Source: a virus
Lineage: Duplodnaviria; Heunggongvirae; Uroviricota; Caudoviricetes
Strand: one strand, 5' to 3'
DNA: 64,000 nt
Virus record (IMG/VR): IMGVR_UViG_3300026473_000783
The position numbers and the translations under genes are program-made. Below the pieces are notes generated by a model, which worked only from the letters and a program-made list of their open reading frames with translations, did no database searches and had not been told where the DNA came from. Positions 1 to 64,000 of the stretch are shown here, one piece after another; the first letter of the stretch is position 1, and every line of letters begins with the position of its first letter.

Positions 1-581
1 TTATAAGTTCTATTGTTAGGAACAATACGGCAACATTTATATAAATTACCTTTTTGATAATTTACTAAATGTTTAATCCACTCTTTTGCGGTCATATCAA
101 AAAGATTATTATGACAATAAAAATTTCCCTGTACTTCACGAGGCGAGCCTTCTAAAGACTTAAGTTGATTTTGTGAACAATAAAAATTACCATTAAGTTC
201 TTGAGGACAACCCTCTAATGATTTAAGCTGATTTTGGGAACAATCAACATTAACAACTTTTAAAGGACAACCTTCCAATGATTCAAGCAAATTAGATGAA
301 CAATAAAAATCTCCACTGACTTCGTGAGGTCCACCTTTTAAAGATTTAAGATAATTACCTGAACAATTAAAACTTCCATCAACTGATTCAGGAGCGCCTT
401 TCAATGATTTAAGTTGATTGCGTCCACAATCGAAATATCCATCCACAATACCAAATTGAAAAGGAATTTTTTCCAAATTTCTATCGATAAGATCAACCCC
501 TTGAAAGCAATCCAAAATCCCAGTTTTTTTAAATTTTTCTTTATCGTAATTTGTTATTCCAAAGTCTTCAGGCTTTTTCAT
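1..581 (-). CDS. family-A LRR-like repeat protein, N-terminal part (ORF runs off window start)
   Basis: ATG at 579-581 (minus) gives MKKPEDFGITNYDKEKF...; ~22-aa CSxNxLKSLxGxPxEVxGxFxC repeats; paralog of 842..1288, 37937..38512, 41395..42159; absent from ORF track because no in-window stop. Confidence 0.55.
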   Translation of the reverse strand, partial: MKKPEDFGITNYDKEKFKKTGILDCFQGVDLIDRNLEKIPFQFGIVDGYFDCGRNQLKSLKGAPESVDGSFNCSGNYLKSLKGGPHEVSGDFYCSSNLLESLEGCPLKVVNVDCSQNQLKSLEGCPQELNGNFYCSQNQLKSLEGSPREVQGNFYCHNNLFDMTAKEWIKHLVNYQKGNLYKCCRIVPNNRTY

Positions 582-586
582 ATATT

Positions 587-793
587 TTAGTCTTTATAAG
601 CAAAAAGAGTTCCACGATTTGTCGCTTTAACATAAACTTCGATTTCTCCGCCAACAGGTAAATTGAGAAGTTTTAAAGAATTTTTTGGCAAATAGTAAGA
701 GTTTAAAAAAACAATAGAGCCATCATGAATCTGGCCTTCTCCGATTCCTTTAAGAGGGTCAAACCATAATAATTTTACTTTTAATTTTTCCAT
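587..793 (-). CDS. cold-shock-domain-like small protein (68 aa)
   Basis: W-F-D-x-x-KGIG...DGS-x-VFLN pattern parallels CspA KWFN..KGFGFI..DGS.DVFVH; paralog at 20701..20907; sigma-28-like promoter 812-838. Confidence 0.5.
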   Translation of the reverse strand: MEKLKVKLLWFDPLKGIGEGQIHDGSIVFLNSYYLPKNSLKLLNLPVGGEIEVYVKATNRGTLFAYKD

Positions 794-811
794 AAATACC
801 TCTTTTTAATT

Positions 812-838
812 TTTTCGGCATTTTTCTTAAAAACTTTA
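812..838 (-). promoter_or_regulatory. sigma-28 (FliA)-type promoter candidate
   Basis: Minus strand TAAAGTTT-N11-GCCGAAAA (consensus TAAAGTTT-N11-GCCGATAA); about 20 nt upstream of CSD gene start. Confidence 0.5.
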
Positions 839-841
839 ATT

Positions 842-1288
842 TTATTTTAAAGCTTTTAAAATTTTTCGCTTTTCTTTTAAACCTTTTAAAGTGGATTCAT
901 AAGATGAATTATCAGGAACAATGCGGCAAGATTTATATAAATCACCGTTTTGATACTTTTCTAAATTTTTGATCCACTCCTGAACTGTCATATCTAAAGG
1001 ATTGCCATGACAATGAAGTATTCGGGCAGTTGTTTTTGGAGCACCTTTTAATGATTTGAGTTGATTATGTGAACAATTAAAACTACCAACTTTAAAGGGA
1101 CAACCTTCTAATGATCCAAGTTGATTATTGGCACAATCAAAATATCCATTAACTATACCAAATTGAAAAGGAATTGTTTCCAATTTTCTATCACGAAGAT
1201 TAACACTTTGAAAACAATCTAAAATCCCAGTTTTTTCAAACTTTTCTTTATTATATTTAGTGATTCCAAAATCTTCAGGTTTTTTCAT
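842..1288 (-). CDS. family-A LRR-like protein with conserved C-terminal tail
   Basis: Track ORF 842..1306 begins GTG; internal MKKPEDFGI Met at 1288 has RBS AGAGGGG; ends ...CRIVPDNSSYESTLKGLKEKRKILKALK. Confidence 0.55.
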   Translation of the reverse strand: MKKPEDFGITKYNKEKFEKTGILDCFQSVNLRDRKLETIPFQFGIVNGYFDCANNQLGSLEGCPFKVGSFNCSHNQLKSLKGAPKTTARILHCHGNPLDMTVQEWIKNLEKYQNGDLYKSCRIVPDNSSYESTLKGLKEKRKILKALK

Positions 1289-1372
1289 AAAACCCCTCTT
1301 TTTCACATCTTCTATCGAAGATTTCGTGTTAAAAATTTAGTATTTCTTAAAAAAAATGTTCGCATTATCTAT

Positions 1373-1401
1373 TTATTCGGAACACTTACTTTAAAACTTT
1401 A
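1373..1401 (-). promoter_or_regulatory. sigma-28-type promoter candidate (weaker)
   Basis: TAAAGTTT-N12-TCCGAATAA; -35 lies within last codons of 1386..1668. Confidence 0.3.
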
Positions 1402-1668
1402 GCTTTTTTTGAAGCTTTTTCTAATTCAAGAGATTTTTTACTTTTTATCTCATCTATCATCATTTTGTAGTATTCATCCTGAATCTTTAAAGATTCAATC
1501 ATTTTACGATCTTTATCAATGCTTGCTTTTGATACACAAGCGAGTCCATTAGATCCATTAGAACAAACAAGATCAGCTGTCTCAAACTGACCAGATAACT
1601 TATCATTATTCGTTTCCCAAGCTTGACAAACATTTGAAAAAATTAAAATAGCTAAAATTAAACTTTTC
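1386..1668 (-). CDS. small secreted protein (signal peptide)
   Basis: Track ORF 1386..1715 starts TTG and contains the sigma-54 -24/-12; likely start GTG 1666-1668 after RBS AGAGG; N-term VKSLILAILIFSNVCQA. Confidence 0.45.
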
Positions 1669-1695
1669 ACAAAGACCTCTATTTTTATTCTTTTA

Positions 1696-2483: not shown

Positions 2484-2556
2484 ATTTGATAAGTGTTTGA
2501 TTTTAATACGGTTTAATTAAATAATGTTTGAATACGACAATTTAAAGTCTTATTTT

Positions 2557-2721
2557 AAAGCTTTTAAAATAGACATCTTCTTTTTTAAATTCTTTAAAGT
2601 TGTTTCATAGTCTGGGTTTGGAACTATTCTAATTGATTGATATACATTTTTAAATACAAAATCTCTTTCTAATGCGAAAACACACATCTCAACTGAAGCT
2701 TTTATAAGTTTTCCTTTTTAT
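2557..2721 (-). pseudogene. 3' fragment of a family-B (DUF4116-like) gene
   Basis: Minus-strand translation GKLIKASVEMCVFALERDFVFKNVYQSIRIVPNPDYETTLKNLKKKMSILKALK* with in-frame stops just upstream; no start. Confidence 0.5.
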
Positions 2722-3074: not shown

Positions 3075-3302
3075 ATGGCTTTACTAGGGTCAGCGATTTT
3101 TTCAATCATATTAGGTCTTTTTATTCTTTGGATTTATTTTCTACCAACCTTTATAGCGAGTAAAAGAAATAATCACTTCTCTTCAGTTCTTTTAATCAAT
3201 TTATTTTTTGGTTGGTCTTTAGTTGGTTGGATTATTGCTTTAGCGATTGCTCTTTCTTCTCCAAAAATTATAGTTGTTGAAAAAAACGAGGATAGATCTT
3301 AA
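3075..3302 (+). CDS. superinfection-immunity (Imm)-like small membrane protein
   Basis: YFLPTFIASKRNNHFSSVLLINLFFGWSLVGWIIALAIAL resembles the phage Imm family motif (FLPsiiA..R...NlllGW..GW); two TM segments. Confidence 0.5.
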   Translation: MALLGSAIFSIILGLFILWIYFLPTFIASKRNNHFSSVLLINLFFGWSLVGWIIALAIALSSPKIIVVEKNEDRS

Positions 3303-4057
3303 TTTTTAACAAATCTATCTTGTATCGATTTATTGATGATATACGCTAAAAATGTAGGCGCAGAAGAACTGGTTCCATTGAATAGGATAGAATCTCCGTC
3401 TTTTGTTTCAAGTAAAACATTTCCCTTAAATGGAGCATAGGCGTTAACTAATTTACCATAATTGGAACGTTCCGATAAAGAATAGGGAAATTCATCGCTA
3501 ATTCCACCTACACAGTAGATGTTTGGAGAATTAAACATACATAACGCTTGAACCTCTTCAACTCTATAAGCATCGTTTCCTGCACTAACCGTTATTTTAA
3601 CTTTATCTGATAAAAACAATAAAGCGATTATTTCTTCTTCATCAATCAAATCTGGCCCAACTCTAACCGATATATTGAGTAGTGATAAGTTTGGAATTTG
3701 GCTCATTTTATTTAAACAATCAGTTAAAATCATCGACTCTTCAATTTGGCAATAAGCTATCTCAATTTTTTCATAAGCGTTAGGGTTTTGTGATTCTACT
3801 GTAGCAATGATCTGATCAATAACGGCTTGACCATGTTTGTCAAAATGAGAAGTTGGGTTTGTTTCGAATTGATAAGCACTTTTATAAAGAGAGCGATTCG
3901 AATTCCAGTTGATTGGATTGATGTCAATAACTCCGATTATAATTTTAGATTGAGTCGAAACTGTTGGGATTTGATTAAAATCGATTAGATCAATTCTATT
4001 CTCTTTTGAAAAATTGATTGAAGCTAAAAGTATTATAGTTGTAATGATTTGTTTCAT
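3299..4057 (-). CDS. secreted subtilisin-like (S8) protein, short/degenerate
   Basis: Signal peptide; IGVIDIN (Asp motif), HGQAVID (His motif), GTSSSAPTFLA (Ser motif); paralogs 53183..53923, 34984..35994. Confidence 0.5.
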   Translation of the reverse strand: MKQIITTIILLASINFSKENRIDLIDFNQIPTVSTQSKIIIGVIDINPINWNSNRSLYKSAYQFETNPTSHFDKHGQAVIDQIIATVESQNPNAYEKIEIAYCQIEESMILTDCLNKMSQIPNLSLLNISVRVGPDLIDEEEIIALLFLSDKVKITVSAGNDAYRVEEVQALCMFNSPNIYCVGGISDEFPYSLSERSNYGKLVNAYAPFKGNVLLETKDGDSILFNGTSSSAPTFLAYIINKSIQDRFVKN

Positions 4058-4421: not shown

Positions 4422-4448
4422 TTATCGGACATTTATTTTAAAACTTTA
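4422..4448 (-). promoter_or_regulatory. sigma-28-type promoter candidate
   Basis: TAAAGTTT-N11-TCCGATAA; -35 overlaps last codons (LKF*) of 4438..4824. Confidence 0.5.
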
Positions 4449-5437: not shown

Positions 5438-6007
5438 TTATGCTGTATGCTGATATGTTTTGACTCCGTTATATTCCATATACTCTTTATCTAAATAATC
5501 AAGAGCTGCTTTATTTGTTTTGCTGACTTTTGCTAAAAAATCTTGAGTTGGATTTTTCACATATTGGATCAAAAATGGAGAAAATTCAATCCCAAGAAGT
5601 TGGACTTCTTCTGATTCTTGATTAAAAAGTTCAACCAAGTTCTTTTTATAAACATTAGGATTGTCTTCTTTTTTCATGTGTGTTGGTAAAAAGTTTAAAC
5701 GCTCATAAGAATAGGGATTTTTGTTAAAAGCGATAAGAGCCATTGCTGAGTTTTGATTTTTAACCAAACTGATCAAATAGGGGGCGGATTTGATTAGACT
5801 CATTTCTTGTCTTGGAGAAAGATCCATCATTGTGATAAGACTTGGAAAATTTTCAATCATTGCCATTTTTTTTGGCCATGTTTGATCATTAAGGATTGAG
5901 GAAATAAATTGGCCCTCTTCTGGGGATAAGTTAAGGTCATTAATTGAAATTTCTTCTATTTTTTTTAAGAAGCCTTTTAAGATGATATCTTTCATTTGGT
6001 TTGTCAT
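5438..6007 (-). CDS. hypothetical protein (189 aa)
   Basis: ORF with sigma-54 cassette 6038-6177 upstream. Confidence 0.45.
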   Translation of the reverse strand: MTNQMKDIILKGFLKKIEEISINDLNLSPEEGQFISSILNDQTWPKKMAMIENFPSLITMMDLSPRQEMSLIKSAPYLISLVKNQNSAMALIAFNKNPYSYERLNFLPTHMKKEDNPNVYKKNLVELFNQESEEVQLLGIEFSPFLIQYVKNPTQDFLAKVSKTNKAALDYLDKEYMEYNGVKTYQHTA

Positions 6008-7500: not shown

Positions 7501-7528
7501 TTGACATTGTGGTTGAATCCCTTATGAT
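7501..7528 (+). promoter_or_regulatory. sigma-70-like promoter
   Basis: TTGACA-N16-TATGAT, then GGAGGAG and ATG 7545. Confidence 0.45.
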
Positions 7529-7544
7529 GGATGGAGGAGATCTT

Positions 7545-7862
7545 ATGAAAATTTTTATTTTAATTTCCATCACGTCAATGTTGTTTTTTGGGTGTTCTAA
7601 AGAAACAGAAGAAACAACTTATCATTACTCCTTACCTGAAGAATTAAAAGATTGTAAAATTTTTCGATTGCGAGGAGACAACACCTCTACACTAAGAGTG
7701 GTGAAATGTCCAAATTCAAACACAACAACCTCTTACAGTGAAGGAAAAACTAAAATGGACATAACAGTGGTTGAAGAAAACTTGAAACAACTCAAACTTA
7801 AAGAATCCGCACTAAATAAACTTACAGACGAGGAAAGAAAAGCATTGGGTCTTTTTAAATAG
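7545..7862 (+). CDS. lipoprotein
   Basis: Internal Met with RBS GGAGGAG; MKIFILISITSMLFFGC lipobox; track start 7509 over-extended. Confidence 0.5.
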   Translation: MKIFILISITSMLFFGCSKETEETTYHYSLPEELKDCKIFRLRGDNTSTLRVVKCPNSNTTTSYSEGKTKMDITVVEENLKQLKLKESALNKLTDEERKALGLFK

Positions 7863-8672: not shown

Positions 8673-9461
8673 ATGAATAATCTAAAAATAAATCAAGAAG
8701 CTATATTTGAAAAAATCTACAAAATAGAGAGAAATGGTGAACTTCAAATCGTTATGTTAGATAAAGATTTAGCTGATTTTTACCAAACAGATACTCGTAA
8801 GATAAATCAATCAGTCAAAAGAAATCCTTTAAAATTTGCTGATCAAACATTTAAACTCACAAAAGAAGAGTGGCTCTCTATTTTAAAAGCAAGAAATGAA
8901 AATGAGGAAGATCCAATTGAATTTAAAGGTGGACATTTACCTTCAGTTTTTACAGAAGAAGGCGCTTTAGCGTTATCGACAGTGTTGGAATCTCCAGTTG
9001 CTATTCAAGTTTTTAAAGTGTTGCTAAAATCATTTTTTGCGATGAGAACTCTTCTAAAGGAAAGACCAGATCTCCAACTTCATCAAGAGGTTTGGGAATT
9101 AAAGAATAGAGTTATTGAAGTTGAGAAAAAAATTGGTGAAAACTCAAATCAAAACGTGGTTATTCATCAATTGACAAATAATGGAACTTTTCAACTTGGA
9201 TCAAACAACTCAATGGTTGTTAAAATCAATGACTTTGAAGATGTTGTTCAATTTATGACAGAACTTAGACGTCATCCTGGTATAAAGGATAATCTTGAAT
9301 CTAAAGAAGCGATTGATAAATCGATTCAATTAGCTCTAAAAGCGGATAAAAAAGGATTGTTGGAACAAATGAGTTCAGTCATATCAATCACCAATAACAT
9401 TGCTGATTTAGCAGTTAAAGCTTCTCCTGTGATTTTATCCATTTTATCTTGGCTTAAATAA
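8673..9461 (+). CDS. ORF6N-domain-like protein (phage antirepressor-associated N-domain)
   Basis: VMLDKDLADFYQTDTRKINQSVKRNPLKFADQTFKLTKEE resembles the ORF6N core. Confidence 0.45.
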   Translation: MNNLKINQEAIFEKIYKIERNGELQIVMLDKDLADFYQTDTRKINQSVKRNPLKFADQTFKLTKEEWLSILKARNENEEDPIEFKGGHLPSVFTEEGALALSTVLESPVAIQVFKVLLKSFFAMRTLLKERPDLQLHQEVWELKNRVIEVEKKIGENSNQNVVIHQLTNNGTFQLGSNNSMVVKINDFEDVVQFMTELRRHPGIKDNLESKEAIDKSIQLALKADKKGLLEQMSSVISITNNIADLAVKASPVILSILSWLK

Positions 9462-10806
9462 AACCTTGCTGTTTTAGAGCTTTTTTTAATTTTTTTATAG
9501 ATAAACCATACTTTCCTAAAGGAGAAGTTATATAAGTTTTGAAATATTTGTTCCCATAAACTTTTTTAGCTTCTTTTTCATATTTAAAAATCTGCTTCTT
9601 ATTACGATCACAATTCTGCTTCTTTTTGTCTGATTTTGTTTCTACAATGATTTTCATTCCTTTTTTATTAGTGCAAACAAAGTCTGGCTTACATTCTTTT
9701 GATAGATTAGGTTCGTATTCAAATTTTAAATCTATTTCTTTAAATAATTTTTTATATTTTGGGTGAACCACCTTTTTTTCGTGAAGATCAAGTTCTGTGT
9801 TAAAAGGATTAGAGCCTTTTAATAAAGATTGAATTGAAATAGTTGTTGTTTTTTTTGTATAAAATTCTTCAATCAATACAATCCAATCCCTTGAATCCTT
9901 AGATTTTGAGACAATTCGTTTAAATCTAAATTTGGGTGAAGATTTTTTTCCAATTTGGTTTACCCTAATTTCATTTTCTTTTATAGAATAAGATTTTTTC
10001 CAAGGGTTATGGCCACGCAAAAGAGAAGCGTGAGGTTTGACTGCCGTTTTTTTCGTTTCAATGTTTTGAATTTTGACTTCGATTTTGTTTAAATTATTTT
10101 TACCTATATATTTTAAGAATTTATATTGAGGATTTGATTTTCGACCTTGTCTATTGGTTGTATTTTTAATTTGCTTTAATGAGTATTTGACTTTCCAAGG
10201 ATTTGTTCCTCTTAATAAAGAAGATAGTCTTGAAAGTTCTGTTTCTCCAGTTTCGTCAAGCTTAACTTCAATTAATCGGTCAGTCCCAGATTTGATTCCT
10301 GAATCTCTTACAAAAGAATAAGAAGGCTTTGCGCTCTTCCCTGCGGCGTTTATTTTTAATTTAATTTCTTCTAAAGTGTAAGCGTTTCCCCAAGGGTTAG
10401 ATCCGTTCATTAAATTTGATAATTGAGCTGTCGCTTTTTGTCCATATTGATTTTTAATTTCAATAATTCGAATGGATTTAGCAGTTCCAACTTTGATTCC
10501 AGTATCTCGAACAAATATATATTTTGGGGTAGATTTTGCCCCAACTGCGTTAACTTTTTGCCTTAGAATTTCTTCACTATAAGGAACGCCTCTTCCTGAA
10601 AAAGGGTTTACGCCTCCCATGATATGTCGAAACAAGCGAATTGCTGTTTTATTGGAATTAATCATTTGAATTTTTACTAACTTTTCATTTTTTGAATTAC
10701 GACCAGCAAGCGAGTGAAATTTAAATTTAGGTTCTCGGATCTTTCCTTTAAGATTGACAGCGTTTTTAAGTTCTTTGTCAGAATATCTAATTCTTTTTGT
10801 ATTCAT
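9454..10806 (-). CDS. repeat protein with C-terminal PD-(D/E)xK nuclease-like domain
   Basis: About 8 copies of ~45-aa module IxxxGKKSxPxYxF...IEVK...LSxLLxGxNPW; C-term KPDFVCTNKKGMKIIVETK (D...E.K); paralogs 17384..18715, 55753..56652. Confidence 0.5.
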   Translation of the reverse strand: MNTKRIRYSDKELKNAVNLKGKIREPKFKFHSLAGRNSKNEKLVKIQMINSNKTAIRLFRHIMGGVNPFSGRGVPYSEEILRQKVNAVGAKSTPKYIFVRDTGIKVGTAKSIRIIEIKNQYGQKATAQLSNLMNGSNPWGNAYTLEEIKLKINAAGKSAKPSYSFVRDSGIKSGTDRLIEVKLDETGETELSRLSSLLRGTNPWKVKYSLKQIKNTTNRQGRKSNPQYKFLKYIGKNNLNKIEVKIQNIETKKTAVKPHASLLRGHNPWKKSYSIKENEIRVNQIGKKSSPKFRFKRIVSKSKDSRDWIVLIEEFYTKKTTTISIQSLLKGSNPFNTELDLHEKKVVHPKYKKLFKEIDLKFEYEPNLSKECKPDFVCTNKKGMKIIVETKSDKKKQNCDRNKKQIFKYEKEAKKVYGNKYFKTYITSPLGKYGLSIKKLKKALKQQGFI

Positions 10807-10847: not shown

Positions 10848-10874
10848 TTATCGGTTGCTTTGTCTGAAACTTTA
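10848..10874 (-). promoter_or_regulatory. sigma-28-type promoter candidate
   Basis: TAAAGTTT-N11-ACCGATAA upstream of 9454..10806. Confidence 0.45.
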
Positions 10875-14230: not shown

Positions 14231-14794
14231 TCAATCCTCAATTTTTGCTGTTTTATGAGAATCTCCATAAATTTTAATGATAGTTTGGATTTGCTCCAAG
14301 CTGTAAGTTTTTTCTTCCCCAATCATTAAAACTGGACTCATAAGGCTTGACTGATCTTCGACATGTTTAAAGCCCAATGCGTGAGATAGTTCGTGCCTAA
14401 ATAAAGATCGAAAGTCATATTCTTCAAAGTTAGGTGAAAAATAGATATTTGCTTCTAAAATCTCATCTCCACGCCAATGAAGGCTCGTTCTTGCTTGTTC
14501 CGAAGGATTTAGATCCTTATATTGGTTGTTGGTGTTCCAGTAGAGGACATTTTTAGTTGTGTCAATTTCTTTAACTTCTTCATTAGAGATTGAAACAAGA
14601 TCAATTCCAATTGTTCGATTAAGGGTTGAGATTTCTTCGCGGGCTATTGTTCTTTTTTTAGAGGGAAAATCTTTATGGAAATAAAACTTAACTTCTTTTT
14701 TCCATCTCAACGGTTCATTATAAGCGTTAGATAAGAAGATTTTGTTTGAATGACAAGAGCATAAAAAAATTATTAATAGATAAAAACTTTTCAT
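14231..14794 (-). CDS. metzincin-type zinc metalloprotease lipoprotein
   Basis: HELSHALGFKH = HExxHxxGxxH; LLIIFLCSC lipobox; paralog 55047..55601. Confidence 0.6.
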   Translation of the reverse strand: MKSFYLLIIFLCSCHSNKIFLSNAYNEPLRWKKEVKFYFHKDFPSKKRTIAREEISTLNRTIGIDLVSISNEEVKEIDTTKNVLYWNTNNQYKDLNPSEQARTSLHWRGDEILEANIYFSPNFEEYDFRSLFRHELSHALGFKHVEDQSSLMSPVLMIGEEKTYSLEQIQTIIKIYGDSHKTAKIED

Positions 14795-14800: not shown

Positions 14801-14828
14801 TTATCGGCTATATTTTGAAAAAACTTTA
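14801..14828 (-). promoter_or_regulatory. sigma-28-type promoter candidate
   Basis: TAAAGTTT-N12-GCCGATAA; identical 32-mer also at 15318-15350 and 16818-16850. Confidence 0.5.
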
Positions 14829-15320: not shown

Positions 15321-15348
15321 CTATCGGCTATATTTTGAAAAAACTTTA
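15321..15348 (-). promoter_or_regulatory. sigma-28-type promoter candidate
   Basis: TAAAGTTT-N12-GCCGATAG. Confidence 0.45.
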
Positions 15349-47340: not shown

Positions 47341-47367
47341 TTATCGGAAAGTTTTTTAAAAACTTTA
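47341..47367 (-). promoter_or_regulatory. sigma-28-type promoter candidate
   Basis: TAAAGTTT-N11-TCCGATAA. Confidence 0.5.
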
Positions 47368-50085: not shown

Positions 50086-50147
50086 ACAAGTATTTAAAAT
50101 AGTTGTTTTTTTAAATAAAAAAATGTAAAATAAAGATATGAAAAAAA
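49865..50147 (+). repeat. structured repeat copy C (inverted relative to A) plus 65-bp leader running into nuclease gene
   Basis: Begins with truncated UAS (taagtaattgattttattgag), then TTGACA 49898-49903 -N17- TTAAAT 49921-49926, then structured region, then leader identical to the one upstream of 47371..47844. Confidence 0.6.
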
Positions 50148-50998
50148 TTATTTATTTAATCGTACTTATCGCCCCTCTTTGTTATGGATATTCATTTAAA
50201 AAATTATTTAAAGAAGTTGAAAAATCTTTTCACCAAGATCATAAAACAACTTCCCATAAAGTCAACAAAGGTCAAATTCAAATTCCAAACGAACCATTCA
50301 CCAAGGCTGAAGCTCCCCAATCTGTTAGTTATGGAGAATCTTTTGGTCGATGTGACGTTTTTTTTCCTAAAAAAAGAGCCCCTGCTATTGATTCAAGACT
50401 AACCTCTAAATCAAGATCAATCTGCTCAACTAAATTTGCGGTCCTTTATTCAACTGATTACAAATCTCCTATTTATACGATTGAAAAACTTTCTTATTTA
50501 AATTTTGTATCTAAAAAAGTGGAAAGATCAAACAAGTTTAAAGAAGATTATAGATTGAAAGATTCTGAAAAATCAACACTTGATGACTATAAAGAAGTCT
50601 CTTTTCAATTCGATAGAGGCCACAATGTGCCTTCTGGAGATTTTGTTGGAGGGTCTGAATTTGAAAATGAAGAAACCTTCTACCTTTCCAATATGTCAGC
50701 CCAAGACGCAACTCTGAATAGAGGTATTTGGGCCAAATCTGTAGAAAAAGCGGTTAGAAGCTATGTTCAAAGATCTTCTGGTGATATTTATGTATTTACA
50801 GGTGGCTATTATGGAAAAAATCCGGTTAGATTTGGCAAAAGTAAAGTGGCTATACCAAATTATTTCTGGAAATTGGTTTATGACGATTATACTAAAAAGT
50901 CATGGGTTTATTGGATTGAAAATAATTCAACAGATAAGCTTAAAGTTTTGTCTTATCAAGAATTTGTCGATAAAACTCAACTTAAGCTTTTAGATTAA
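50138..50998 (+). CDS. secreted DNA/RNA non-specific endonuclease (Serratia-nuclease/NucA family)
   Basis: Signal peptide; DRGHNVPSGDF and FYLSNMSAQDATLNRGIWAKSVE match the DRGH...N...N.G.W..E active-site signature. Confidence 0.65.
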   Translation: MKKIIYLIVLIAPLCYGYSFKKLFKEVEKSFHQDHKTTSHKVNKGQIQIPNEPFTKAEAPQSVSYGESFGRCDVFFPKKRAPAIDSRLTSKSRSICSTKFAVLYSTDYKSPIYTIEKLSYLNFVSKKVERSNKFKEDYRLKDSEKSTLDDYKEVSFQFDRGHNVPSGDFVGGSEFENEETFYLSNMSAQDATLNRGIWAKSVEKAVRSYVQRSSGDIYVFTGGYYGKNPVRFGKSKVAIPNYFWKLVYDDYTKKSWVYWIENNSTDKLKVLSYQEFVDKTQLKLLD

Positions 50999-51729: not shown

Positions 51730-52128
51730 ATGGCAAATAACCCCACAAACTATAAACAAGTCATTTTAATTCGTGAAGATCTCAATTTAAGTGCTGGAAA
51801 ACTTGCCGCTCAAGTTGCTCATGCTTCGCTAGGAGCTATTTTATCTATTTCGAAAATTGAAGATAAAAAATTAACAATTGAGCTGGATGATCCTACTTTT
51901 CTTTGGATTAGTGAGCGATTTACAAAAATTTGCTTAAAAGTAAAAAATGAAGAAGAGCTTCTGTTCTACTACAATAAAGTTAAGGAATCAAACTTAAAAC
52001 ATGCGATTATAAAAGATGCTGGCTTTACTGAGCTTGAATCTCCAACATTGACTTGTCTAGGGATTGGTCCTGATTTCAATGATAGGATTGACGCAATTAC
52101 AAAAAAATTAAGGCTATACAACAAGTGA
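51730..52128 (+). CDS. peptidyl-tRNA hydrolase PTH2 family
   Basis: KQVILIREDLNLSAGKLAAQVAHAS....DAGFTELESPTLTCLGIGP....KKLRLY matches PTH2 signature. Confidence 0.65.
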   Translation: MANNPTNYKQVILIREDLNLSAGKLAAQVAHASLGAILSISKIEDKKLTIELDDPTFLWISERFTKICLKVKNEEELLFYYNKVKESNLKHAIIKDAGFTELESPTLTCLGIGPDFNDRIDAITKKLRLYNK

Positions 52129-52634
52129 AAAAACCTGAAGATTTTGGAATCACTAAATATGATAAGAAAAAGTTTAAAAAAACTGGAATTTTAGATTGCT
52201 TCCAGAATGTCAATTTAAGTAATCTAAAATTAACAAAAATTCCCTTTAACTTTGGAACCATTGAAGGTTTTTTTTCTTGCTCAAACAATAATTTAAACTC
52301 ATTAAAAGGATCTCCAAGAATTGTTTCAGGTAGCTTTTATTGTTTTAACAATAAATTAAAATCATTAAAAAATTCTCCAGAAAAAGTTTTTTGTGACTTT
52401 TATTGTGATAATAATAAATTAAAATCTTTAAAAAATATATCAGAATGCCATCGAGACGTTTATTGCGAAGAAAATCCGATAGATATGACAGTAAAAGACT
52501 GGATTGAGGTTTTAGAAAAATGTCCAAATAGCGATTTATTCAAATACTGTCAAATAACTTCTGACAATTCAACTTATGAGAATGTCTTAAATTGTCTTAA
52601 AGAGAAATTAGCTATTTTAGAAGCTTTAGATTAA
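52125..52634 (+). CDS. family-A LRR-like protein
   Basis: GTG start overlapping PTH2 stop (GTGA); VKKPEDFGITKYDKKKF...; tail YCQITSDNSTYENVLNCLKEKLAILEALD. Confidence 0.55.
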   Translation: MKKPEDFGITKYDKKKFKKTGILDCFQNVNLSNLKLTKIPFNFGTIEGFFSCSNNNLNSLKGSPRIVSGSFYCFNNKLKSLKNSPEKVFCDFYCDNNKLKSLKNISECHRDVYCEENPIDMTVKDWIEVLEKCPNSDLFKYCQITSDNSTYENVLNCLKEKLAILEALD

Positions 52635-53182: not shown

Positions 53183-53923
53183 TTATTGAAGAGAGCGAAC
53201 AATCGATGAAGCTAAAAAACGAGGTGCACTTGCAGAAGTTCCAACAAATTGTCTTTTATCGTATCTAAAATAGTCATAAATATCAATAGAACCTCTATAA
53301 TAATCGACAGCGTCTATAGAACTACCATAATTGCTACCTTTATCAAAAGATTTGCGATCTAGACTAATTCCACCTACACATATTTTATTTTTTAATCGAT
53401 AAGAACAAAGCTCGTTTTGAGAAGCGTCAGCGCTATCATTTCCTGCAGAGACTATTATTTTTGTTTTTTCAGAAACCTCCAATAAAAGATCTTTTTCTGA
53501 TTGTTTCAAATTTGGAATAATCATTGAGATATTTATAGCGGTTAAATTAAGTGATTTAAATTGAGATAAGCAATTTTCGATAGATAGAGTTTCATCCATT
53601 TGACAGTAGATAATTTCTACATTTGATACTTTGTATTTTTCAAAAATAGAAACCATTTCGCTTATAACCGCTTCCCCATGAAGGTCATTAGCTTGCTCAA
53701 TAAAAACAACTTTAGGTTTTGATATTTGAATTGAAGATTTGTATTTTAAAGAAGATTCTGTCCATTTGACAGGATACACGTCAATAACCCCAATTTTGAT
53801 TTTTTCATTTTTTGAAATATCAAATTTAAAAGAAATACTTCTCTGAACAAGCTCTTTGACCCGTTCTGATGGGTGCTGGACTACGCTTGATAATAATAGG
53901 CACATTACTAATTTTTTAAACAT
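53183..53923 (-). CDS. secreted subtilisin-like (S8) protein, short/degenerate
   Basis: IGVIDVYP, HGEAVISEM, FVGTSASAPRFLA; ATG 13 nt from sigma-54 -12. Confidence 0.5.
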   Translation of the reverse strand: MFKKLVMCLLLSSVVQHPSERVKELVQRSISFKFDISKNEKIKIGVIDVYPVKWTESSLKYKSSIQISKPKVVFIEQANDLHGEAVISEMVSIFEKYKVSNVEIIYCQMDETLSIENCLSQFKSLNLTAINISMIIPNLKQSEKDLLLEVSEKTKIIVSAGNDSADASQNELCSYRLKNKICVGGISLDRKSFDKGSNYGSSIDAVDYYRGSIDIYDYFRYDKRQFVGTSASAPRFLASSIVRSLQ

Positions 53924-54459: not shown

Positions 54460-55038
54460 TTAGTCAAAAAGAGCTAATATAGCTTGTTTTTCTTTTAAAC
54501 CTTTTAAAGTCGACTCATAAGTGGAATTATCTGAAACAATTAAACAAAGTTTAAAAAAGTTTCTGCTCGAATGTTGAGTTTTTGTTAAAAATTCTATCCA
54601 CTCTTGGACAGTCATGTCTAAAGGATTTCCAAAAAAAACCATTGAACCTTTTACTTCAGGAAGATTGTTTATTTTTTTCAATTTATTGTATTGACAATAA
54701 AAACCGCCAATAGCTTTTAATGGACTTCCTTCTAATGAAGTGAGTTGATTATAGGAACAATCGCAAATCTGATTGACTTCTTTAGGAAAATACTGTGATG
54801 ATTTAAGTTGATTATGAGAACAATCAAAATCTCCCAAAACTTTTTTAGGAGAACCTTTTAGTGATTTAAGATTATTTACTGATAAAATAAAATCTCCATG
54901 AGCGATTCCAAAATTAAAAGGGATTTCTGATAAATTTCGATTGCTCAAGTCGACATTCTGAAAACAATCCAAAACTCCCGTTTTTTCAAACTTTTCTTTA
55001 TCATATTTGGTAATTCCAAAATCTTCCGGTCTTTTCAT
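54460..55038 (-). CDS. family-A LRR-like protein
   Basis: MKRPEDFGITKYDKEKF...; co-operonic with metzincin gene. Confidence 0.55.
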   Translation of the reverse strand: MKRPEDFGITKYDKEKFEKTGVLDCFQNVDLSNRNLSEIPFNFGIAHGDFILSVNNLKSLKGSPKKVLGDFDCSHNQLKSSQYFPKEVNQICDCSYNQLTSLEGSPLKAIGGFYCQYNKLKKINNLPEVKGSMVFFGNPLDMTVQEWIEFLTKTQHSSRNFFKLCLIVSDNSTYESTLKGLKEKQAILALFD

Positions 55039-56775: not shown

Positions 56776-58308
56776 ATGAAAAAATCACAAATCTTGCCAA
56801 CTCTACTTGCCCTTACATTTTCTCTTGTCGCATGTAAAGAAATTGAAGTGGTTAAAACTAAAAAAGGAACAACATCTTCAAGTGCTGCGCCAATGGTTGA
56901 CTATGGAATTGCGCTTTATACAGCTCAAGAAGAATTGCTTGGAACTTCTAAATTGTTCAGTATTGACACAAAAGGTGTTATAAACAAAATACAAAGCGAA
57001 GAAGGCCAAGATCTTGAAAACTTATATATTAACACGGTTATACCTGTTAAAAGCGGCTTGATTTTTTCAGTTTATAATGGAAATTTAAATCAAAGCGAGA
57101 ATTATTTTACAAATGGTAAAACGGCTCAAAAATTAAGCTATACAGGTCAATTTTCAAGCTCAAAAGGTGAAAGTATCGATTATTCAAGATCAGCAAAAAC
57201 ACGCTTTTCTTTTTTCTGTAGCCAAGGAACGGCAATGGCTTGGGATGATAATTTAAAAACAATAACTGCAATTTCTCAGACAAGTGGGAGTTGTCAAGTC
57301 GCTTATTCTCAAAATAAACTTGTCGTGGTTAATTCAGATTACCAAATGTTTTTCATGGGGCCTTCAACGATTTCAACTAAAATCACAAAATTTTCATTTA
57401 ATGAAGATTCTATTGGTGAGCCTGAAGTTATGAGTGATTCATCAAGTTTGATCAACTACGTTGATTCTTTAGATGTTGTTGATAATAAAGTAATTATGAT
57501 TAGAACTATTGGTGCAGATTATTCTAATGTTGTTAGAAGCATTGTTTCAATAAATCTTGACAATAATTCTTCAGAAAATCTTCTTTCAGTTTCTGGAAAT
57601 GATTCATATATTTATAAACTAACTAATAAAAAACTAGATAATGGAAAATTATTTTTTGTTGAACAACGCTATTTTCAAGGTGATAGTTACGATGTTTTAT
57701 ATGAAGACACTCAAAACGTTTACTACTCTTCAACGGGTTATCAAAATCGTAAACTTATCTCTTACAGCAGTCAAGAGGGCTTATCTGTTTTAATCGATAA
57801 AACTTATCAATCAGAAAATTTAGGTTATGAGTTTATTGTTGGAGAAGATACGGCGTTCGTGATTAAAGATCAATACTATCCTTCTCAAGAGGGAGATTCT
57901 TATAGAACTTACAATCTTTATAATTTAAATGATTTAGAAAATCCTATATTAGCTTCATATTACGATAGCAGAGTACCAAGTCAACAAGTCTTCCACTTTT
58001 TAGATCTTAAAACTGGTCTTATTATAGTCTCAAAAGATATGGTTCAGCCAGATCAGCCAACTCAAAAAGAAATAACTGCATACGTTTTACCTTCGGCGAC
58101 TAGAGAATTAGGTGTTGATAAAAGAATTGTGTTGGGGAATTTTAACTATGTTAACTTTATAAACTTTTACGGACAAGTTTTATATAACTATTCAAGTTAT
58201 ATTTCAGAAACGGATTCTTATGAGATGAAAGCCGGATTTGTAAGTGTTCTCAAAGATTCGGCACAAATGATTGAACAGCTAAACCCAATGTTTTTAAACA
58301 ACAACTAG
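56776..58308 (+). CDS. lipoprotein (510 aa)
   Basis: LLALTFSLVAC lipobox; RBS AAAGGAG. Confidence 0.55.
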   Translation: MKKSQILPTLLALTFSLVACKEIEVVKTKKGTTSSSAAPMVDYGIALYTAQEELLGTSKLFSIDTKGVINKIQSEEGQDLENLYINTVIPVKSGLIFSVYNGNLNQSENYFTNGKTAQKLSYTGQFSSSKGESIDYSRSAKTRFSFFCSQGTAMAWDDNLKTITAISQTSGSCQVAYSQNKLVVVNSDYQMFFMGPSTISTKITKFSFNEDSIGEPEVMSDSSSLINYVDSLDVVDNKVIMIRTIGADYSNVVRSIVSINLDNNSSENLLSVSGNDSYIYKLTNKKLDNGKLFFVEQRYFQGDSYDVLYEDTQNVYYSSTGYQNRKLISYSSQEGLSVLIDKTYQSENLGYEFIVGEDTAFVIKDQYYPSQEGDSYRTYNLYNLNDLENPILASYYDSRVPSQQVFHFLDLKTGLIIVSKDMVQPDQPTQKEITAYVLPSATRELGVDKRIVLGNFNYVNFINFYGQVLYNYSSYISETDSYEMKAGFVSVLKDSAQMIEQLNPMFLNNN

Positions 58309-60142: not shown

Positions 60143-60613
60143 TTATTTAAAAGCTTCTAATATCTCTTTTTTGTTTAATAGATTCTTAATGGTCGTTTTA
60201 TAGTTTGGATTTGGCACTATTCTAACATATTTATAACAACCTTTATCTAGTTTTAAAGCTAAAAGACATATTTCAACGGTTTGTTCTTCTACAAACTGAA
60301 TAGATCCACTCCACTTTTCAATTGCTAGTTTACACAATTCTTTCGTTTGATTTTTTACAAACATTAAACACCAAGGTTCTTGTTTAATAGAGAATTCACA
60401 AATTTTATTTATCTGATTGTTTATTACAGATAAAATTGTTGGATCTAATTTTAAATAATCACAAATTTCTTCTTCATTTAATTGATTTAGCCAATTAACA
60501 AAAGTTTTATGCTCTTTTTTTGAGCAAATTTGTAGATTTGACCAGTCTTTAAAATGCCAAGCTTGATTTCTTAAATTTTCTTCAAATAAAGATTTAATTT
60601 CTTTATTTGTCAT
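60143..60613 (-). CDS. family-B DUF4116-like repeat protein
   Basis: ...VRIVPNPNYKTTIKNLLNKKEILEAFK. Confidence 0.55.
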   Translation of the reverse strand: MTNKEIKSLFEENLRNQAWHFKDWSNLQICSKKEHKTFVNWLNQLNEEEICDYLKLDPTILSVINNQINKICEFSIKQEPWCLMFVKNQTKELCKLAIEKWSGSIQFVEEQTVEICLLALKLDKGCYKYVRIVPNPNYKTTIKNLLNKKEILEAFK

Positions 60614-61077
60614 TTTAAAGCCTCTAAAATAGCTTTTTTCTCTAATAGATTTTTAAGGGTCATTTCATAATTAGTATTTGGGACAATTCTAATATGCGAA
60701 TAAACTTCACTATCTGATTTTAAAGCTAAAAGGCACAAATCCACAGTTTGTTCTTTAACATTTTTTATAATGAATGGATTGAATTGAATCGCTATTGAAA
60801 ACAATCTTTCACTTGGATCTTTAATTGATAAAACAAGATGAGGAATTCGACTAATTGCGATAATAGCCAAATATTCGTCAAGATTTGTCAAAACTGAAAT
60901 AATGGTTGGACTCTTCTGAACATAGCTAATCAATTCTTTTGTGTTTAATTGATTAAGCCATGTTATGAAAATAGACATTTCATATTCAGAACAAACCTTT
61001 AATACTTTCCAATTCCAGAATAGAACGCCACTTTCTACATTTTTATCAAATAATCTTTTAATTTCGCTATTTTTCAT
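60610..61077 (-). CDS. family-B DUF4116-like repeat protein
   Basis: ...IRIVPNTNYEMTLKNLLEKKAILEALK; 4-nt overlaps on both sides. Confidence 0.55.
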   Translation of the reverse strand: MKNSEIKRLFDKNVESGVLFWNWKVLKVCSEYEMSIFITWLNQLNTKELISYVQKSPTIISVLTNLDEYLAIIAISRIPHLVLSIKDPSERLFSIAIQFNPFIIKNVKEQTVDLCLLALKSDSEVYSHIRIVPNTNYEMTLKNLLEKKAILEALK

Positions 61078-61675
61078 TTTTTATTTTTTCAAAAACAGCA
61101 CAAACTCGTTTTATCTGATTTTTACAATCATCAATAGCATTATGCTTTTCACCTTTAAATTCAATTTCTTTTTTCGAATTAAAATTAAAAGCCCTCATTC
61201 CAATATCGTCATAGGTCCGAACATCTGCATCATCCCAGTACTTCCAAGGAGCTTCAATGCTACAAGCGTTATAAGCGGATCTAACCCAGACACAATCAGC
61301 AACAGGCCCGTTTCCCCAAACCTTAACTTTTGAACAGTTATTTTTTTTCATCTCTTCCTTTAACCAATCGGTAAAAGCAAAAAGAACTTCTCTTAACTCC
61401 TCACCTTCTGTAAAAGCTTTTAAAATAACCTTATTGAAAACAGATTCTTCCTGTTTAAGCCAAAAATCCATTGTCGGAACGCTTCCATAAGGACTCTCAC
61501 AAGACAAACCTACTTTAGCACAAGATTGAGGCTTAATGAATCGATTAAACTCACTTAGAGGTTTTCCTGACTCGATTTGAAATGAAACTGCAGATAACTG
61601 AGTGATAACTGGTTTAAGACCGTTTCCTAACGTTTCAACATCAAGCATTATATCTAATGTATTTGACTTAATCAT
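61067..61675 (-). CDS. DEDDh-type 3'-5' exonuclease
   Basis: MLDVETLGN (Exo I D.E), VWGNG (Exo II), HNAIDD (Exo III). Confidence 0.55.
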   Translation of the reverse strand: MIKSNTLDIMLDVETLGNGLKPVITQLSAVSFQIESGKPLSEFNRFIKPQSCAKVGLSCESPYGSVPTMDFWLKQEESVFNKVILKAFTEGEELREVLFAFTDWLKEEMKKNNCSKVKVWGNGPVADCVWVRSAYNACSIEAPWKYWDDADVRTYDDIGMRAFNFNSKKEIEFKGEKHNAIDDCKNQIKRVCAVFEKIKNEK

Positions 61676-61992: not shown

Positions 61993-62009
61993 CACTTTTT
62001 TTAATTTTC

Positions 62010-62435
62010 TCATTTTAAGGCATCTAAGATAGCTTTTTTCTCTTTAAGATTTTTTAGAGTCGTCTCATGATCTGGATTTGGGACGATTTTTATATTTTTA
62101 TAACAATTATAAACACCATTTGGGATCATAATTGTTTCTTTGATTAAAGCTAAAATACACAAGTCGACTGTTTGATCTCGAATGAAAGCAATTGAATAAG
62201 GATCTCTTTCAATAACCATTTTGCATACTTTATAGGATTGATTTGTGATTACAGATAAAATAGTTTGATCTTTATCAAGATAATCACAAATCTTTTGTTC
62301 AGGTAATTGATTTAACAATTTTATAATTAGATTCATTTCTTTTTTATTAAAAACACCAAAATTTTCCCAAAAAATAAAAGGGTGTGGGGACGTCAGTTTT
62401 TCTTCAAATAATTTTTGAATTTTACCACTTTTCAT
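62010..62435 (-). CDS. family-B DUF4116-like repeat protein
   Basis: ...IKIVPNPDHETTLKNLKEKKAILDALK. Confidence 0.55.
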   Translation of the reverse strand: MKSGKIQKLFEEKLTSPHPFIFWENFGVFNKKEMNLIIKLLNQLPEQKICDYLDKDQTILSVITNQSYKVCKMVIERDPYSIAFIRDQTVDLCILALIKETIMIPNGVYNCYKNIKIVPNPDHETTLKNLKEKKAILDALK

Positions 62436-62908
62436 TTAAGAGCCTCTAAAATATCTTTTTTATTTTTAAGATTTAATAGGGTCGTCTCAACATCTGGATT
62501 AGGAACAATTCTAACATCTTTATATGAATAATATAAAGAATTATTCTCTAGTGCGAAAAGACATAAATCAACAGTTTGCTCTTTAATTAAGAAAAGAACG
62601 TTTGTATCCAATTGTAAAGCAAACAGGCAAATACTTTCTGTTTGATTTTTAATATGTTTTAAAGAGTATGGATTTATTGAAATAGCCCTTTCACAAATTT
62701 TTATGGATTGATCTTCTCTTGCTGAAAGAATAGACCAATCAGTCTTCAAAAAATCACAAAACTCATCTTCGCTTAATTGGTTTATCCATTTTTTAAAAAA
62801 CTTCATTTCATGTTTGTCACAAATTTTTCTATCAAGCCAATCCTCAAACAAATATTTATGTTTTTTATGACGTTCCTTAAATAAAGCTTCAATTTGATCA
62901 TTTCTCAT
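62432..62908 (-). CDS. family-B DUF4116-like repeat protein
   Basis: ...VRIVPNPDVETTLLNLKNKKDILEALK. Confidence 0.55.
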   Translation of the reverse strand: MRNDQIEALFKERHKKHKYLFEDWLDRKICDKHEMKFFKKWINQLSEDEFCDFLKTDWSILSAREDQSIKICERAISINPYSLKHIKNQTESICLFALQLDTNVLFLIKEQTVDLCLFALENNSLYYSYKDVRIVPNPDVETTLLNLKNKKDILEALK

Positions 62909-62918
62909 TAAAATCCTC

Positions 62919-63401
62919 TTAAAAAGAATCTAAAATAGATTTTTTAGCATATAAATTTTTAAGTGTTGTCTCATGATCTGGATTTTGGACAATTTTAACC
63001 ATTGTAAAGTTTAAAAGATTCAAGTTTTTAGTTTTTTTCTTTTCTTCTTCTAATGCTAAAATACAAGTTTCAACGTCTTGATCAAATCTAATCAATCCAA
63101 AACTTACATAGGAATCTTTAATACAAATAATTGCTTCTTTTTTAGAAAGTTTATCTTTTTTATAAATTCCATAAGAATAACTATAAGACAAGAGTTCTAA
63201 CCAATAGTCTTCACTTTTATTTTCTAAATATCTCGCAATAAAAGGGTAGTTTTGTGTATGTTCATAAATTTCTTTAGGAGATAAACTATTAAGCAGAGAT
63301 ATGATCTCTTGTTGAGAACTTTCCGTTAAAAATCCTGTGTTTTTTAAAACATCAAGGCTCATTCCCTTTTTTAATAAGTTCTTTAATTTTACTATATCCA
63401 T
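62919..63401 (-). CDS. family-B-like protein, divergent N-terminus
   Basis: ...VKIVQNPDHETTLKNLYAKKSILDSF. Confidence 0.45.
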   Translation of the reverse strand: MDIVKLKNLLKKGMSLDVLKNTGFLTESSQQEIISLLNSLSPKEIYEHTQNYPFIARYLENKSEDYWLELLSYSYSYGIYKKDKLSKKEAIICIKDSYVSFGLIRFDQDVETCILALEEEKKKTKNLNLLNFTMVKIVQNPDHETTLKNLYAKKSILDSF

Positions 63402-63483
63402 TTAATCATTATAAAGGAAAGTTTTAAGTTTTTAAAGAAATAAGTTAAAATGTATCGATTCGAATCATTTTATTTTAAAATTG

Positions 63484-63512
63484 TTTACAAAATAATATTT
63501 TTTTAATAGAAT
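63484..63512 (+). promoter_or_regulatory. sigma-70-like promoter
   Basis: TTTACA-N17-TAGAAT upstream of 63534..63728. Confidence 0.4.
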
Positions 63513-63533
63513 CATAGGATAGAGGAGAATTTT

Positions 63534-63728
63534 ATGGAAAAAAAATGTTGTGGTGGAAATTGTCATAAACCTAATAAAAAAGAAGACCTTTATTTACATG
63601 AATACGATAATGGAGAAATTGAAGTGGTTTCTGGAAAAGATAGATCTGACGCAAAGATCCAAAATTCTTCTGGTCATTTAAGAATTAAACGATATAAACT
63701 TGTTGAAGTGGCTGAAAAAGGCTGTTAG
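63534..63728 (+). CDS. hypothetical Cys-rich small protein (64 aa)
   Basis: RBS AGGAGAAT; sigma-70-like promoter 63484-63512. Confidence 0.4.
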   Translation: MEKKCCGGNCHKPNKKEDLYLHEYDNGEIEVVSGKDRSDAKIQNSSGHLRIKRYKLVEVAEKGC

Positions 63729-63731
63729 AGA

Positions 63732-64000
63732 TGAAAAAACCTGAAGATTTTGGAATCACCAAATATGATAAAGAAAAATTTGAAAAAACTGGGATTTTGG
63801 ATTGTTTCCAAAGTGTTTATCTTCGTGATAGAAATTTGAAAAAAATTCCTTTTCAATTTGGTATTGTGGATGGATATTTTGATTGTTCCCATAATCAATT
63901 AAAGTCATTAGAAGGCTGTCCTCAAGAAGTTAAAGGAGATTTTTATTGTTATGAAAATCAACTTAAATCATTAGAAGGTTGCCCGAAAGAAGTTAATGGA
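63732..64000 (+). CDS. family-A LRR-like protein, N-terminal part (runs off window end)
   Basis: MKKPEDFGITKYDKEKFEKTGILDCFQ...CSHNQLKSLEGCPQEV. Confidence 0.55.

Follow-up and report, generated by a model that had tools for sequence, protein, structure and literature searches.

Why should two different classes of small repeat proteins, encoded side by side in the same DNA, end in one and the same run of residues? The question is raised by IMG/VR record IMGVR_UViG_3300026473_000783, a stretch of 64,000 nucleotides analysed here at its full length (hereafter the window), in which about one quarter of the genes belong to two repeat scaffolds, leucine-rich repeat (LRR) proteins (family A) and DUF4116-type alpha-solenoid proteins (family B). 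The initial annotation had proposed a constant C-terminal tag on variable scaffolds, acting as a sorting or secretion signal, a degron or a partner-binding motif on a diversified repertoire of effectors or adhesins. Its core is borne out: the copy number of the repeat families is extreme, and the two scaffolds do have a significant, highly conserved C-terminal element in common. We propose that this element is a folded, DUF4116-derived module which caps the repeats and which may, in addition, dock a diversified set of binders onto a common partner.

A motif scan of all six frames of the window, by regular expression and then with a hidden Markov model (HMM) of the tail, detected 23 open reading frames (ORFs) with the motif at the C-terminus, either as [RK]IVxNPDxETTLKNLxEKKAILxALK or in a form longer by one residue, CRIVxDNSTYESTLKGLKEKxAILEALK. 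Head-domain HMMs added two family A genes cut at the window edges and one tail-less B-like gene. Family A comprises seven genes in the window, five with complete tails, and family B 19, of which 18 carry the tail (Table 1); the latter include a 55-amino-acid fragment (2550-2717), a 96-amino-acid ORF (43162-43452) and a frameshifted copy (30744-31382). These totals agree with the counts first reported, seven and 19; one B gene (5438-6007) lacks the tail. Repeat number is variable, from about 2 to 7 LRR units in family A and from 1 to 4 DUF4116 units in family B. The window is AT-rich (26-33% GC), and its minus strand holds most of its short genes. The frameshifted B copy is spread over three frames, by frameshift or decay, which shows turnover inside the array. 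The 4-nucleotide overlaps of tandem B genes described earlier were found as ATGA in three pairs (39997-40000, 60610-60613 and 62432-62435). In these pairs the final tail codons TTA GAG GCT TTA AAA TGA, which encode LEALK, supply the following B gene with its ribosome-binding site (GAGG, of Shine-Dalgarno type) and its ATG, so that tandem B copies are translationally coupled. In the approximately 173 kb of unique DNA read from this genome or near-identical strains, 61 distinct module-bearing ORFs were counted, of which 46 belong to B and 11 to A, the other 4 being fragmentary or diverged. Both families have been multiplied by tandem duplication, most probably in the genome of a huge phage.

The similarity between the tails of the two families is not a matter of composition. 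A tail HMM built on family B only scored the five complete A tails at 18.3-40.6 bits, whereas the maximum among 10,000 composition-preserving shuffles was 11.7 bits, and alignment of the B profile with the A profile by hhalign gave a probability of 96.1% (E = 3e-9) over 47 columns. Taken together, the shuffle control and the profile-profile comparison show that the tail similarity is no artefact of K/L content, the weakness that had been named beforehand. The measures given in the initial annotation have to be revised, however. The homology extends over about 47-50 amino acids (hhalign and consensus) instead of 28; the LRR period is 63 nucleotides, that is 21 instead of 22 amino acids; the B unit has a period of 22 instead of about 24 amino acids, as judged from the helix spacing in the AlphaFold2 model and from canonical DUF4116 units; and the two families, described as completely different upstream of the 28 residues, are homologous over about 20 residues more, which themselves constitute one DUF4116-type repeat.

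Structure prediction yielded a confident helical module in both families. The AlphaFold2 models, one monomer of each family read as secondary-structure elements and predicted local distance difference test (pLDDT) values, reached a pLDDT of 97.1 for the B protein (47371-47844), with module helices at residues 113-122, 127-130 and, following a loop, 139-156, and of 94.8 for the A protein (37937-38509), with helices at residues 144-153, 158-162 and, following a loop, 172-189. In both models a 10-residue helix, a short helix, a loop at PNPD or DNST and an 18-residue terminal helix succeed each other with pLDDT values of about 95-98, which argues for a folded domain and not for a linear tag. According to these models, the module is composed of a DUF4116-type hairpin (QTVDLCLLALE...Y..VRIV), followed by a conserved PNPD turn and a predicted amphipathic terminal helix of 18 residues (ETTLKNLxEKKAILEALK). 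Its first half is hereafter half 1, and the segment from RIV to the end is half 2.

In the literature DUF4116 is predicted to form an alpha-solenoid, without a solved structure and with no function assigned. Family B clearly belongs to it by repeat pattern and fold despite its sub-threshold Pfam score: the best B protein (42208-42759) reached 19.5 bits against the DUF4116 profile (PF13475; cut-off 24.9) and two other B members gave no match, PF13475 being on record for the relative P0006 and other PF13475 matches elsewhere being faint. The repeat signature of the family consists of tandem hairpins of about 22 amino acids with QTxE[IL]C...A[IV], with canonical units at loci L002 and L003, and family B shares the 22-amino-acid hairpin [IV]KxQTxE[IL]CLxA[IV]xxN and the alpha-solenoid fold with the DUF4116 proteins of giant viruses and jumbo phages. 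A Foldseek search of BFVD with the family B model returned nearly exclusively DUF4116 proteins as top matches, with a probability of 1.0, among them proteins of giant viruses (Klosneuvirus, Hokovirus and Bodo saltans virus) and of Agrobacterium phage Atu_ph07. Bacillus phage AgentSmith likewise has DUF4116 paralogs in tandem arrays, but without the tail. Family B differs from DUF4116 proteins elsewhere by its own conserved N-terminal domain of 60 amino acids and by the conserved terminal helix, besides scoring below the Pfam cut-off; this helix was not seen in DUF4116 proteins read from other organisms.

The two halves of the module have different relatives. Positions 1-24 of the module HMM match canonical DUF4116 units (VKEQTVEICLAAVxxNGxALxYV) in more than 20 unrelated GTDB or metagenome loci that are devoid of the second half, and in proteins P0065 and P0089 canonical DUF4116 arrays lead straight into the tail. 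In one clade of DUF4116 alpha-solenoid proteins, known from metagenomes only, the module is thus the usual C-terminus. Since half 1 is a DUF4116 repeat, family A is best described as an LRR protein with a DUF4116-derived end. The LRR nature of family A itself is supported by a match to Pfam LRR_4 (PF12799; 31.6 bits, threshold 27), by its 63-nucleotide period, by short strands at regular spacing in the AlphaFold2 model and by Foldseek matches to viral LRR proteins. Its units of 21 amino acids (xFxCSxNxLxSLEGxPxxVxG) are those of the short LRR proteins of jumbo and huge phages, which are of the bacterial SspH/IpaH-like type.

Conservation is concentrated at the very end of the proteins. In family B, column identity is 0.38 in the N-terminal domain, 0.33 in the internal repeats, 0.48 in half 1 and 0.73 in half 2, so that the last 27 residues are the best-conserved part (73% versus 33-38% upstream). 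The polar half 2 residues N5, T11, N14, K18 and K19, numbered within the RIV... segment, are retained in at least 41 of 44 copies whose tails are in register. Identity between the consensus lines of A and B, counted by hand, amounts to about 78% in half 2 but to about 24% in half 1, which means that the terminal helix stayed fixed while the helix on which it would pack was rewritten. At the level of codons, third positions in the tails are 57% and second positions 83% identical, and the same codon is used in 61% of the pairs with identical residues. Synonymous sites have thus diverged, which indicates purifying selection on the protein and not recent gene conversion.

How far the module extends beyond this genome was assessed by exhaustively comparing the module profile with 1.84 billion representative proteins clustered at 50% identity, which gave 132 clusters with E of 1e-3 or lower, 52 of them with E of 1e-10 or lower; a word-indexed search with the module profile had returned two fragments. 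In 85 of the 132 clusters the module ends no more than 5 residues before the C-terminus, and in 106 no more than 15. Sorted by the head HMMs, 102 clusters are B-like, five A-like and 25 neither, the last group being mostly fragments or diverged DUF4116-like proteins; heads missed by a narrow repeat-unit HMM (10 canonical units) were nearly all DUF4116-like by eye. A few members of this group have different heads (P0105, which is TPR-like, P0140 and P0154). All ten clusters that were looked up came from metagenome assemblies, and none of the tail-bearing homologues found had an informative protein name. Half 2, in the form RIVPNPDxETTLKNLxEKKAILEALK, matched nothing in Pfam (E up to 10) or among PDB sequences, nor was it present in 50,697 INPHARED phage records, where tblastn weakly matched the DUF4116 half alone. 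At the pattern used, half 2 was also absent from 185,579 GTDB species representatives; in IMG/VR, protein patterns of the module gave no match and the DNA pattern one chance match. In a related genome (Logan SRR9661224, 32% GC) a stretch of 25-50 residues comes after the diverged module copies, and P0044 contains the module twice, once internally and once at its end; an extreme C-terminal position is therefore not obligatory. Conversely, relatives of the LRR scaffold in other metagenomes end in different C-terminal modules (P0025, P0029-P0034), which implies that ends are exchangeable on this scaffold. By tblastn the LRR scaffold showed 47% identity to proteins of Vibrio jumbo phages, with further matches in uncultured phages of 630-735 kb (LR756501, 735 kb) and Lak megaphages, which together hold its nearest named relatives; these relatives carry other C-terminal modules, the DUF4116-derived one being confined to the present lineage. 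Outside the window, the RTX-like giant repeat protein P0141 (2399 amino acids) contains a recurring DRIRIVTDTGSETTL(T/N)ALYAAANIRV that resembles the RIVPNPDxETTLKNL core (E = 1e-4); this likeness is probably due to chance or to a convergent strand-turn-helix motif.

What, then, is the module for? We propose, at about an even chance of being right, that it is a cap combined with a docking element on a diversified repertoire of binders. Recombination with a DUF4116 gene resident in the same genome would have brought the module into an LRR-family ancestor, and the terminal 27 residues would then be more than a solenoid cap, offering a constant surface for docking or self-association. Many binders, variable in repeat number and surface and probably aimed at host proteins, might in this way be tied to one common partner, for which a phage or host machine or other members of the families are candidates. 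In its logic this arrangement would resemble adaptors that combine a constant box with variable repeats, among them F-box, SOCS-box and poxviral ANK-PRANC proteins, to none of which it is related in sequence. The suggestion that the helix does more than cap comes from its being nearly unchanged in the LRR context despite the rewritten preceding helix, and from the polar nature of several of its invariant positions. Of the functions named in the initial annotation, partner binding accordingly remains the best reading of the constant element. Several considerations weigh against this proposal. Alpha-solenoids and LRR proteins both need end caps, and the demands of structure alone can keep a capping helix strongly conserved; NPD and ETT have the appearance of residues that N-cap a helix; no selection for a shared function need be invoked if one ancestral recombination was followed by duplication; and the AlphaFold2 models, as read at the level of secondary structure, do not tell a packed from a projecting terminal helix.

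These considerations lead to the strongest alternative, namely that the last DUF4116 hairpin and the terminal helix do nothing but shield the hydrophobic end of the solenoid, and that one illegitimate recombination brought them into an LRR protein before both families expanded, with no shared partner or signal involved. We rate this as possible but doubtful, and the further alternatives, virion packaging, a secretion signal or degron and conservation at the DNA level, as progressively less likely. A cap and nothing else would fit a module that is helical, confidently folded and continuous with the repeats, whose half 1 is itself a repeat unit and whose amphipathic last helix bears residues suited to helix capping, and one recombination event suffices for the sharing. 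Half 2 is nevertheless conserved well above any other part of the proteins, and its A/B identity, so much higher than that of the preceding helix, is hard to explain by intramolecular packing alone. Several of the near-invariant positions (N5, N14, K18 and K19) are polar. Moreover, the DUF4116 arrays of Bacillus phage AgentSmith and of a Brachyspira and a Saccharibacteria metagenome-assembled genome do without this cap.

If the docking function is accepted, a more far-reaching version of it can be imagined, although we think it unlikely: a phage counterpart of the F-box or PRANC design, in which dozens to more than 100 LRR and DUF4116 binders would each recognise a different host protein, for example of a defence system, and would be plugged via the invariant module into one machine of the phage or host, for which a protease, the capsid or a compartment can be thought of. 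This would amount to a previously undescribed system of host takeover or anti-defence. The resemblance lies in a constant helical module of about 40-50 amino acids on variable repeats within large virus-encoded paralog families, as in F-box, SOCS-box and poxvirus ANK-PRANC proteins, and Foldseek also matched the fold of the family B model to Marseillevirus LCMAC201 proteins whose annotation names an F-box domain. However, the host is probably a bacterium, devoid of SCF or cullin, and even with E values up to 10 allowed, none of the 23 modules gave a match to F-box, PRANC or SOCS profiles, nor was there a match among PDB sequences; the analogy is one of design only.

T4 internal proteins are diverse and have a conserved capsid-targeting peptide in common; known sequences of this type are short peptides at the N-terminus, which the prohead protease cleaves off. 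By analogy, the module might be a virion-incorporation signal that loads variable small proteins into a huge capsid, from which they would leave together with the DNA and act early against the host or its defences. The T4-like or huge-phage-like gene context and the many small cytoplasmic paralogs with one constant element would suit such a role. We nonetheless consider it improbable, as the module is C-terminal, about 48 amino acids long and folded, with no recognisable protease site, as the N-termini of A and B differ, and as no head genes were seen beside the arrays.

Even less credit can be given to a linear C-terminal signal for sorting or secretion, similar to those of type I or type IV secretion systems, or to a degron, carried by effectors or adhesins that a cellular organism secretes. 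The C-terminal position in most members, the charged, K/E/L-rich tail and the ankyrin and RCC1 proteins of the same genome are compatible with that idea, which we regard as very improbable. Known secretion signals and degrons of this kind are poorly conserved in sequence, unlike the module. A folded, helical structure is predicted for the latter, and in relatives it is internal or trailed by 25-50 other residues. It had no match in Pfam or PDB, and PADLOC gave nothing meaningful on the whole A and B proteins. The proteins are devoid of signal peptides, the context is phage-like and secretion-system genes were not seen in the approximately 173 kb, so that a repertoire of secreted effectors or adhesins is left without support.

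Conservation by gene conversion, by DNA or RNA signals at the 3' end (ribosome-binding site, promoter or terminator) or by low complexity can scarcely be the answer, for although GAGG and the next ATG lie within the last codons of the overlapping pairs, and the -35 elements of the sigma-28-like motif described below begin a few bases 3' of the stop codons of several tail-bearing genes, the overlap with such signals is confined to the last five codons, the tail is as conserved in genes lacking a tandem follower and in the 132 clusters of other assemblies, and gene conversion and a composition artefact were rejected on the codon-position divergence and the shuffle control.

The repertoire proposed here as capped and docking belongs, as far as gene content can tell, to a huge bacteriophage, which is the probable source of the window. 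Genes of the window were also found on contigs of up to 419,463 bp, the longest being k141_359446 of ENA ERZ27251563. Phage-type genes include rIIA, matched over its full length (phrog_612, 5.8e-49), Dda-like and PIF1 helicases, T4-type RNA ligase 1 (Rnl1), a DUF4942 methyltransferase, four copies of PcfJ and an HNH endonuclease. Imm_superinfect, an ORF6N anti-repressor, an Rv2179c-type exonuclease, SprT and a GmrSD_N/ParB-like protein are also part of the context, together with stand-alone pieces of cellular genes, namely a RelA/SpoT HD domain, a sigma-54 activator AAA core and short LspA-like proteins. Most genes had no Pfam match, no tRNA, rRNA or other Rfam match was found in the window, and eight orphan proteins had no match in INPHARED, nor a shorter subset of them in PLSDB. 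Two observations speak against a phage: the approximately 173 kb read showed no capsid, portal or terminase gene, for which reason a huge phage is probable but unproven, and the window has bacterial-type features, that is lipobox lipoproteins, LspA-like genes and sigma-28-type promoters. A giant virus, suggested by the low GC content and DUF4116, was rejected in view of lipobox signal peptides, Shine-Dalgarno sites, 4-nucleotide overlaps and the phage genes. An endosymbiotic or predatory bacterium, which the LspA-like genes, lipoproteins, ankyrin and RCC1 proteins and sigma-28 promoters might suggest, is less likely given rIIA, Dda, Rnl1, Imm, the few Pfam matches and the absence from the GTDB species representatives. 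An alternative genetic code was likewise discarded: the stops are TAA (71), TGA (18) and TAG (15), reading any of them as sense brought no real gain in long ORFs, and the standard code therefore fits.

The sigma-28-like promoter motif, AAAGTTT-N11-14-CCGATA(A), occurs 12 times in exact form in the window, as against 0.04 expected, and 16 times in relaxed form. Most sites lie about 20 nucleotides upstream of an ATG, with GGAG or GAGG in between, and two family A genes are preceded by the variant CCGAAA. The approximately 173 kb hold 20 distinct sites, and one more is present on the related SRR9661224 contig. The motif agrees with the textbook sigma-28 (FliA) consensus, TAAAGTTT-N11-GCCGATAA. 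Such apparent reliance on sigma-28-type promoters is unusual for a phage.

Conflict-related and host-derived genes lie scattered among the repeat-protein arrays (Table 1), as does a TnpB/IS605 OrfB-type protein of 543 amino acids (48178-49809, minus strand; Cas12f1-like_TNB 5.3e-18, OrfB_IS605 and HTH_OrfB_IS605). Richness in paralogs is a property of the whole region, beyond families A and B. Duplicate pairs include stand-alone HD_4 (RelA/SpoT hydrolase-like) genes (19661-20155 and 37398-37889), short LspA-like (Peptidase_A8) genes (21030-21422 and 38588-38980) and the pairs 587-793/20701-20907, 4438-4824/13077-13463 and 5192-5398/31264-31476. Two paralogs of about 450 amino acids (9454-10806 and 17384-18766, both minus strand) have internal repeats of about 55 amino acids ending in NPW or NPF and a C-terminal restriction-endonuclease-like region (weak Tox-REase-9 match, 1.4e-3), with no other database match. 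Three subtilase-related proteins with signal or lipobox peptides (3299-4057, 34984-36003 and 53183-53923, all minus strand) comprise one clear Peptidase_S8 (2.8e-20) and two shorter paralogs that keep SAGND and GTSxSAP by eye. Other lipobox lipoproteins are encoded at 7524-7862, 14231-14794, 46143-46928 (SPFH/Band 7) and 56776-58308. Elsewhere in the same genome, ankyrin-repeat proteins (L006, 5782-6348 and 8087-8716), an RCC1/WD40_RLD protein of 1153 amino acids (L006, 14458-17919) and a SWIB-domain protein (L008, 933-1265) add to the "eukaryote-like" repeat proteins and are without the module.

Table 1. Positions in the window of the family A and B genes, the sigma-28-like motif sites and the conflict-related and host-derived genes (aa, amino acids).
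Feature	Coordinates	Strand	Remarks
Family A (LRR)	1-581	-	tail cut by window start; full protein P0020, 211 aa, ends ...CRIVPNNRTYKSTLKGLKEKLAILKALD
Family A	842-1288	-	148 aa; module and 2-3 LRR units
Family B fragment	2550-2717	-	module only (P0017, 45 aa)
B-like, DUF4116-type, without tail	5438-6007	-	B head HMM E=4.5e-7; ends ...DKEYMEYNGVKTYQHTA
Family B	21557-21964	-	diverged tail (KIVPNPDFKTTLSNLKKKQKLMSIL)
Family B	25184-25669	-	161 aa
Family B	26630-27097	-	155 aa
Family B, frameshifted N-terminus	30744-31382	-	head pieces in ORFs 31078-31197 and 31152-31382; tail ORF 30744-31106
Family B	32001-32468	-	likely start: MTNDQIKK ATG at 32468
Family A	37937-38509	-	190 aa; AlphaFold2-modelled; sigma-28-like promoter 38531-38555 directly upstream
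Family B	39590-40000	-	4-nucleotide overlap with upstream B gene
Family B	39997-40431	-	
Family B-like	40440-40859	-	N-terminus hydrophobic and diverged; module canonical
Family A	41395-42159	-	254 aa; about 7 LRR units of 21 aa; Pfam LRR_4 match
Family B	42208-42759	-	4 DUF4116-type units; Pfam DUF4116 under cut-off
Short B-like with module	43162-43452	-	96 aa
Family B	43861-44328	-	
Family B	47371-47844	-	157 aa; AlphaFold2-modelled
Family A	52125-52634	+	GTG start; most diverged tail (CQITSDNSTYENVLNCLKEKLAILEALD)
Family A	54460-55038	-	192 aa
Family B	60143-60613	-	4-nucleotide overlap with upstream B gene
Family B	60610-61077	-	
Family B	62010-62435	-	4-nucleotide overlap
Family B	62432-62908	-	
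Diverged family B	62919-63401	-	
Family A	63731-64000	+	cut by window end; full protein P0021, 170 aa, tail present
Sigma-28-like motif	813-837, 2457-2482, 4423-4447, 10849-10873, 14802-14827, 15322-15347, 16822-16847, 18724-18749, 20926-20950, 26601-26625, 31910-31934, 37909-37933, 38531-38555, 42179-42203, 45517-45541, 47342-47366	-	
Imm_superinfect	3075-3302	+	
ORF6N anti-repressor	8673-9461	+	
GmrSD_N/ParB-like nuclease domain	25712-26545	-	PADLOC NsnA-like, 1.4e-16
Secreted non-specific endonuclease	50138-50998	+	
Archaeal/eukaryotic-type peptidyl-tRNA hydrolase Pth2	51730-52128	+	
Isolated sigma-54-activator AAA core	31491-31925	-	
Rv2179c-type exonuclease	61067-61675	-	

That giant viruses and jumbo phages have these two scaffolds, and have them in expanded families, was already known; new are the conserved terminal module, its occurrence in both classes of solenoid and the size of the repertoire. 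Expansions of repeat proteins (ankyrin, LRR, DUF4116 and F-box) are a hallmark of giant viruses and have hardly been analysed in huge phages, and a text search of a comparative jumbo-phage survey found no mention of LRR, ankyrin or solenoid expansions. Here, the two scaffolds are joined by one module under far stronger selection than the rest of the protein. The sequence RIVPNPDxETTLKNLxEKKAILEALK can serve as a metagenome signature for this phage lineage and its repertoire, and the module provides a defined bait of 27-48 residues with which a common partner may be sought. Should the module turn out to be a cap only, it would still represent a clean case of domain grafting between two classes of solenoid proteins.

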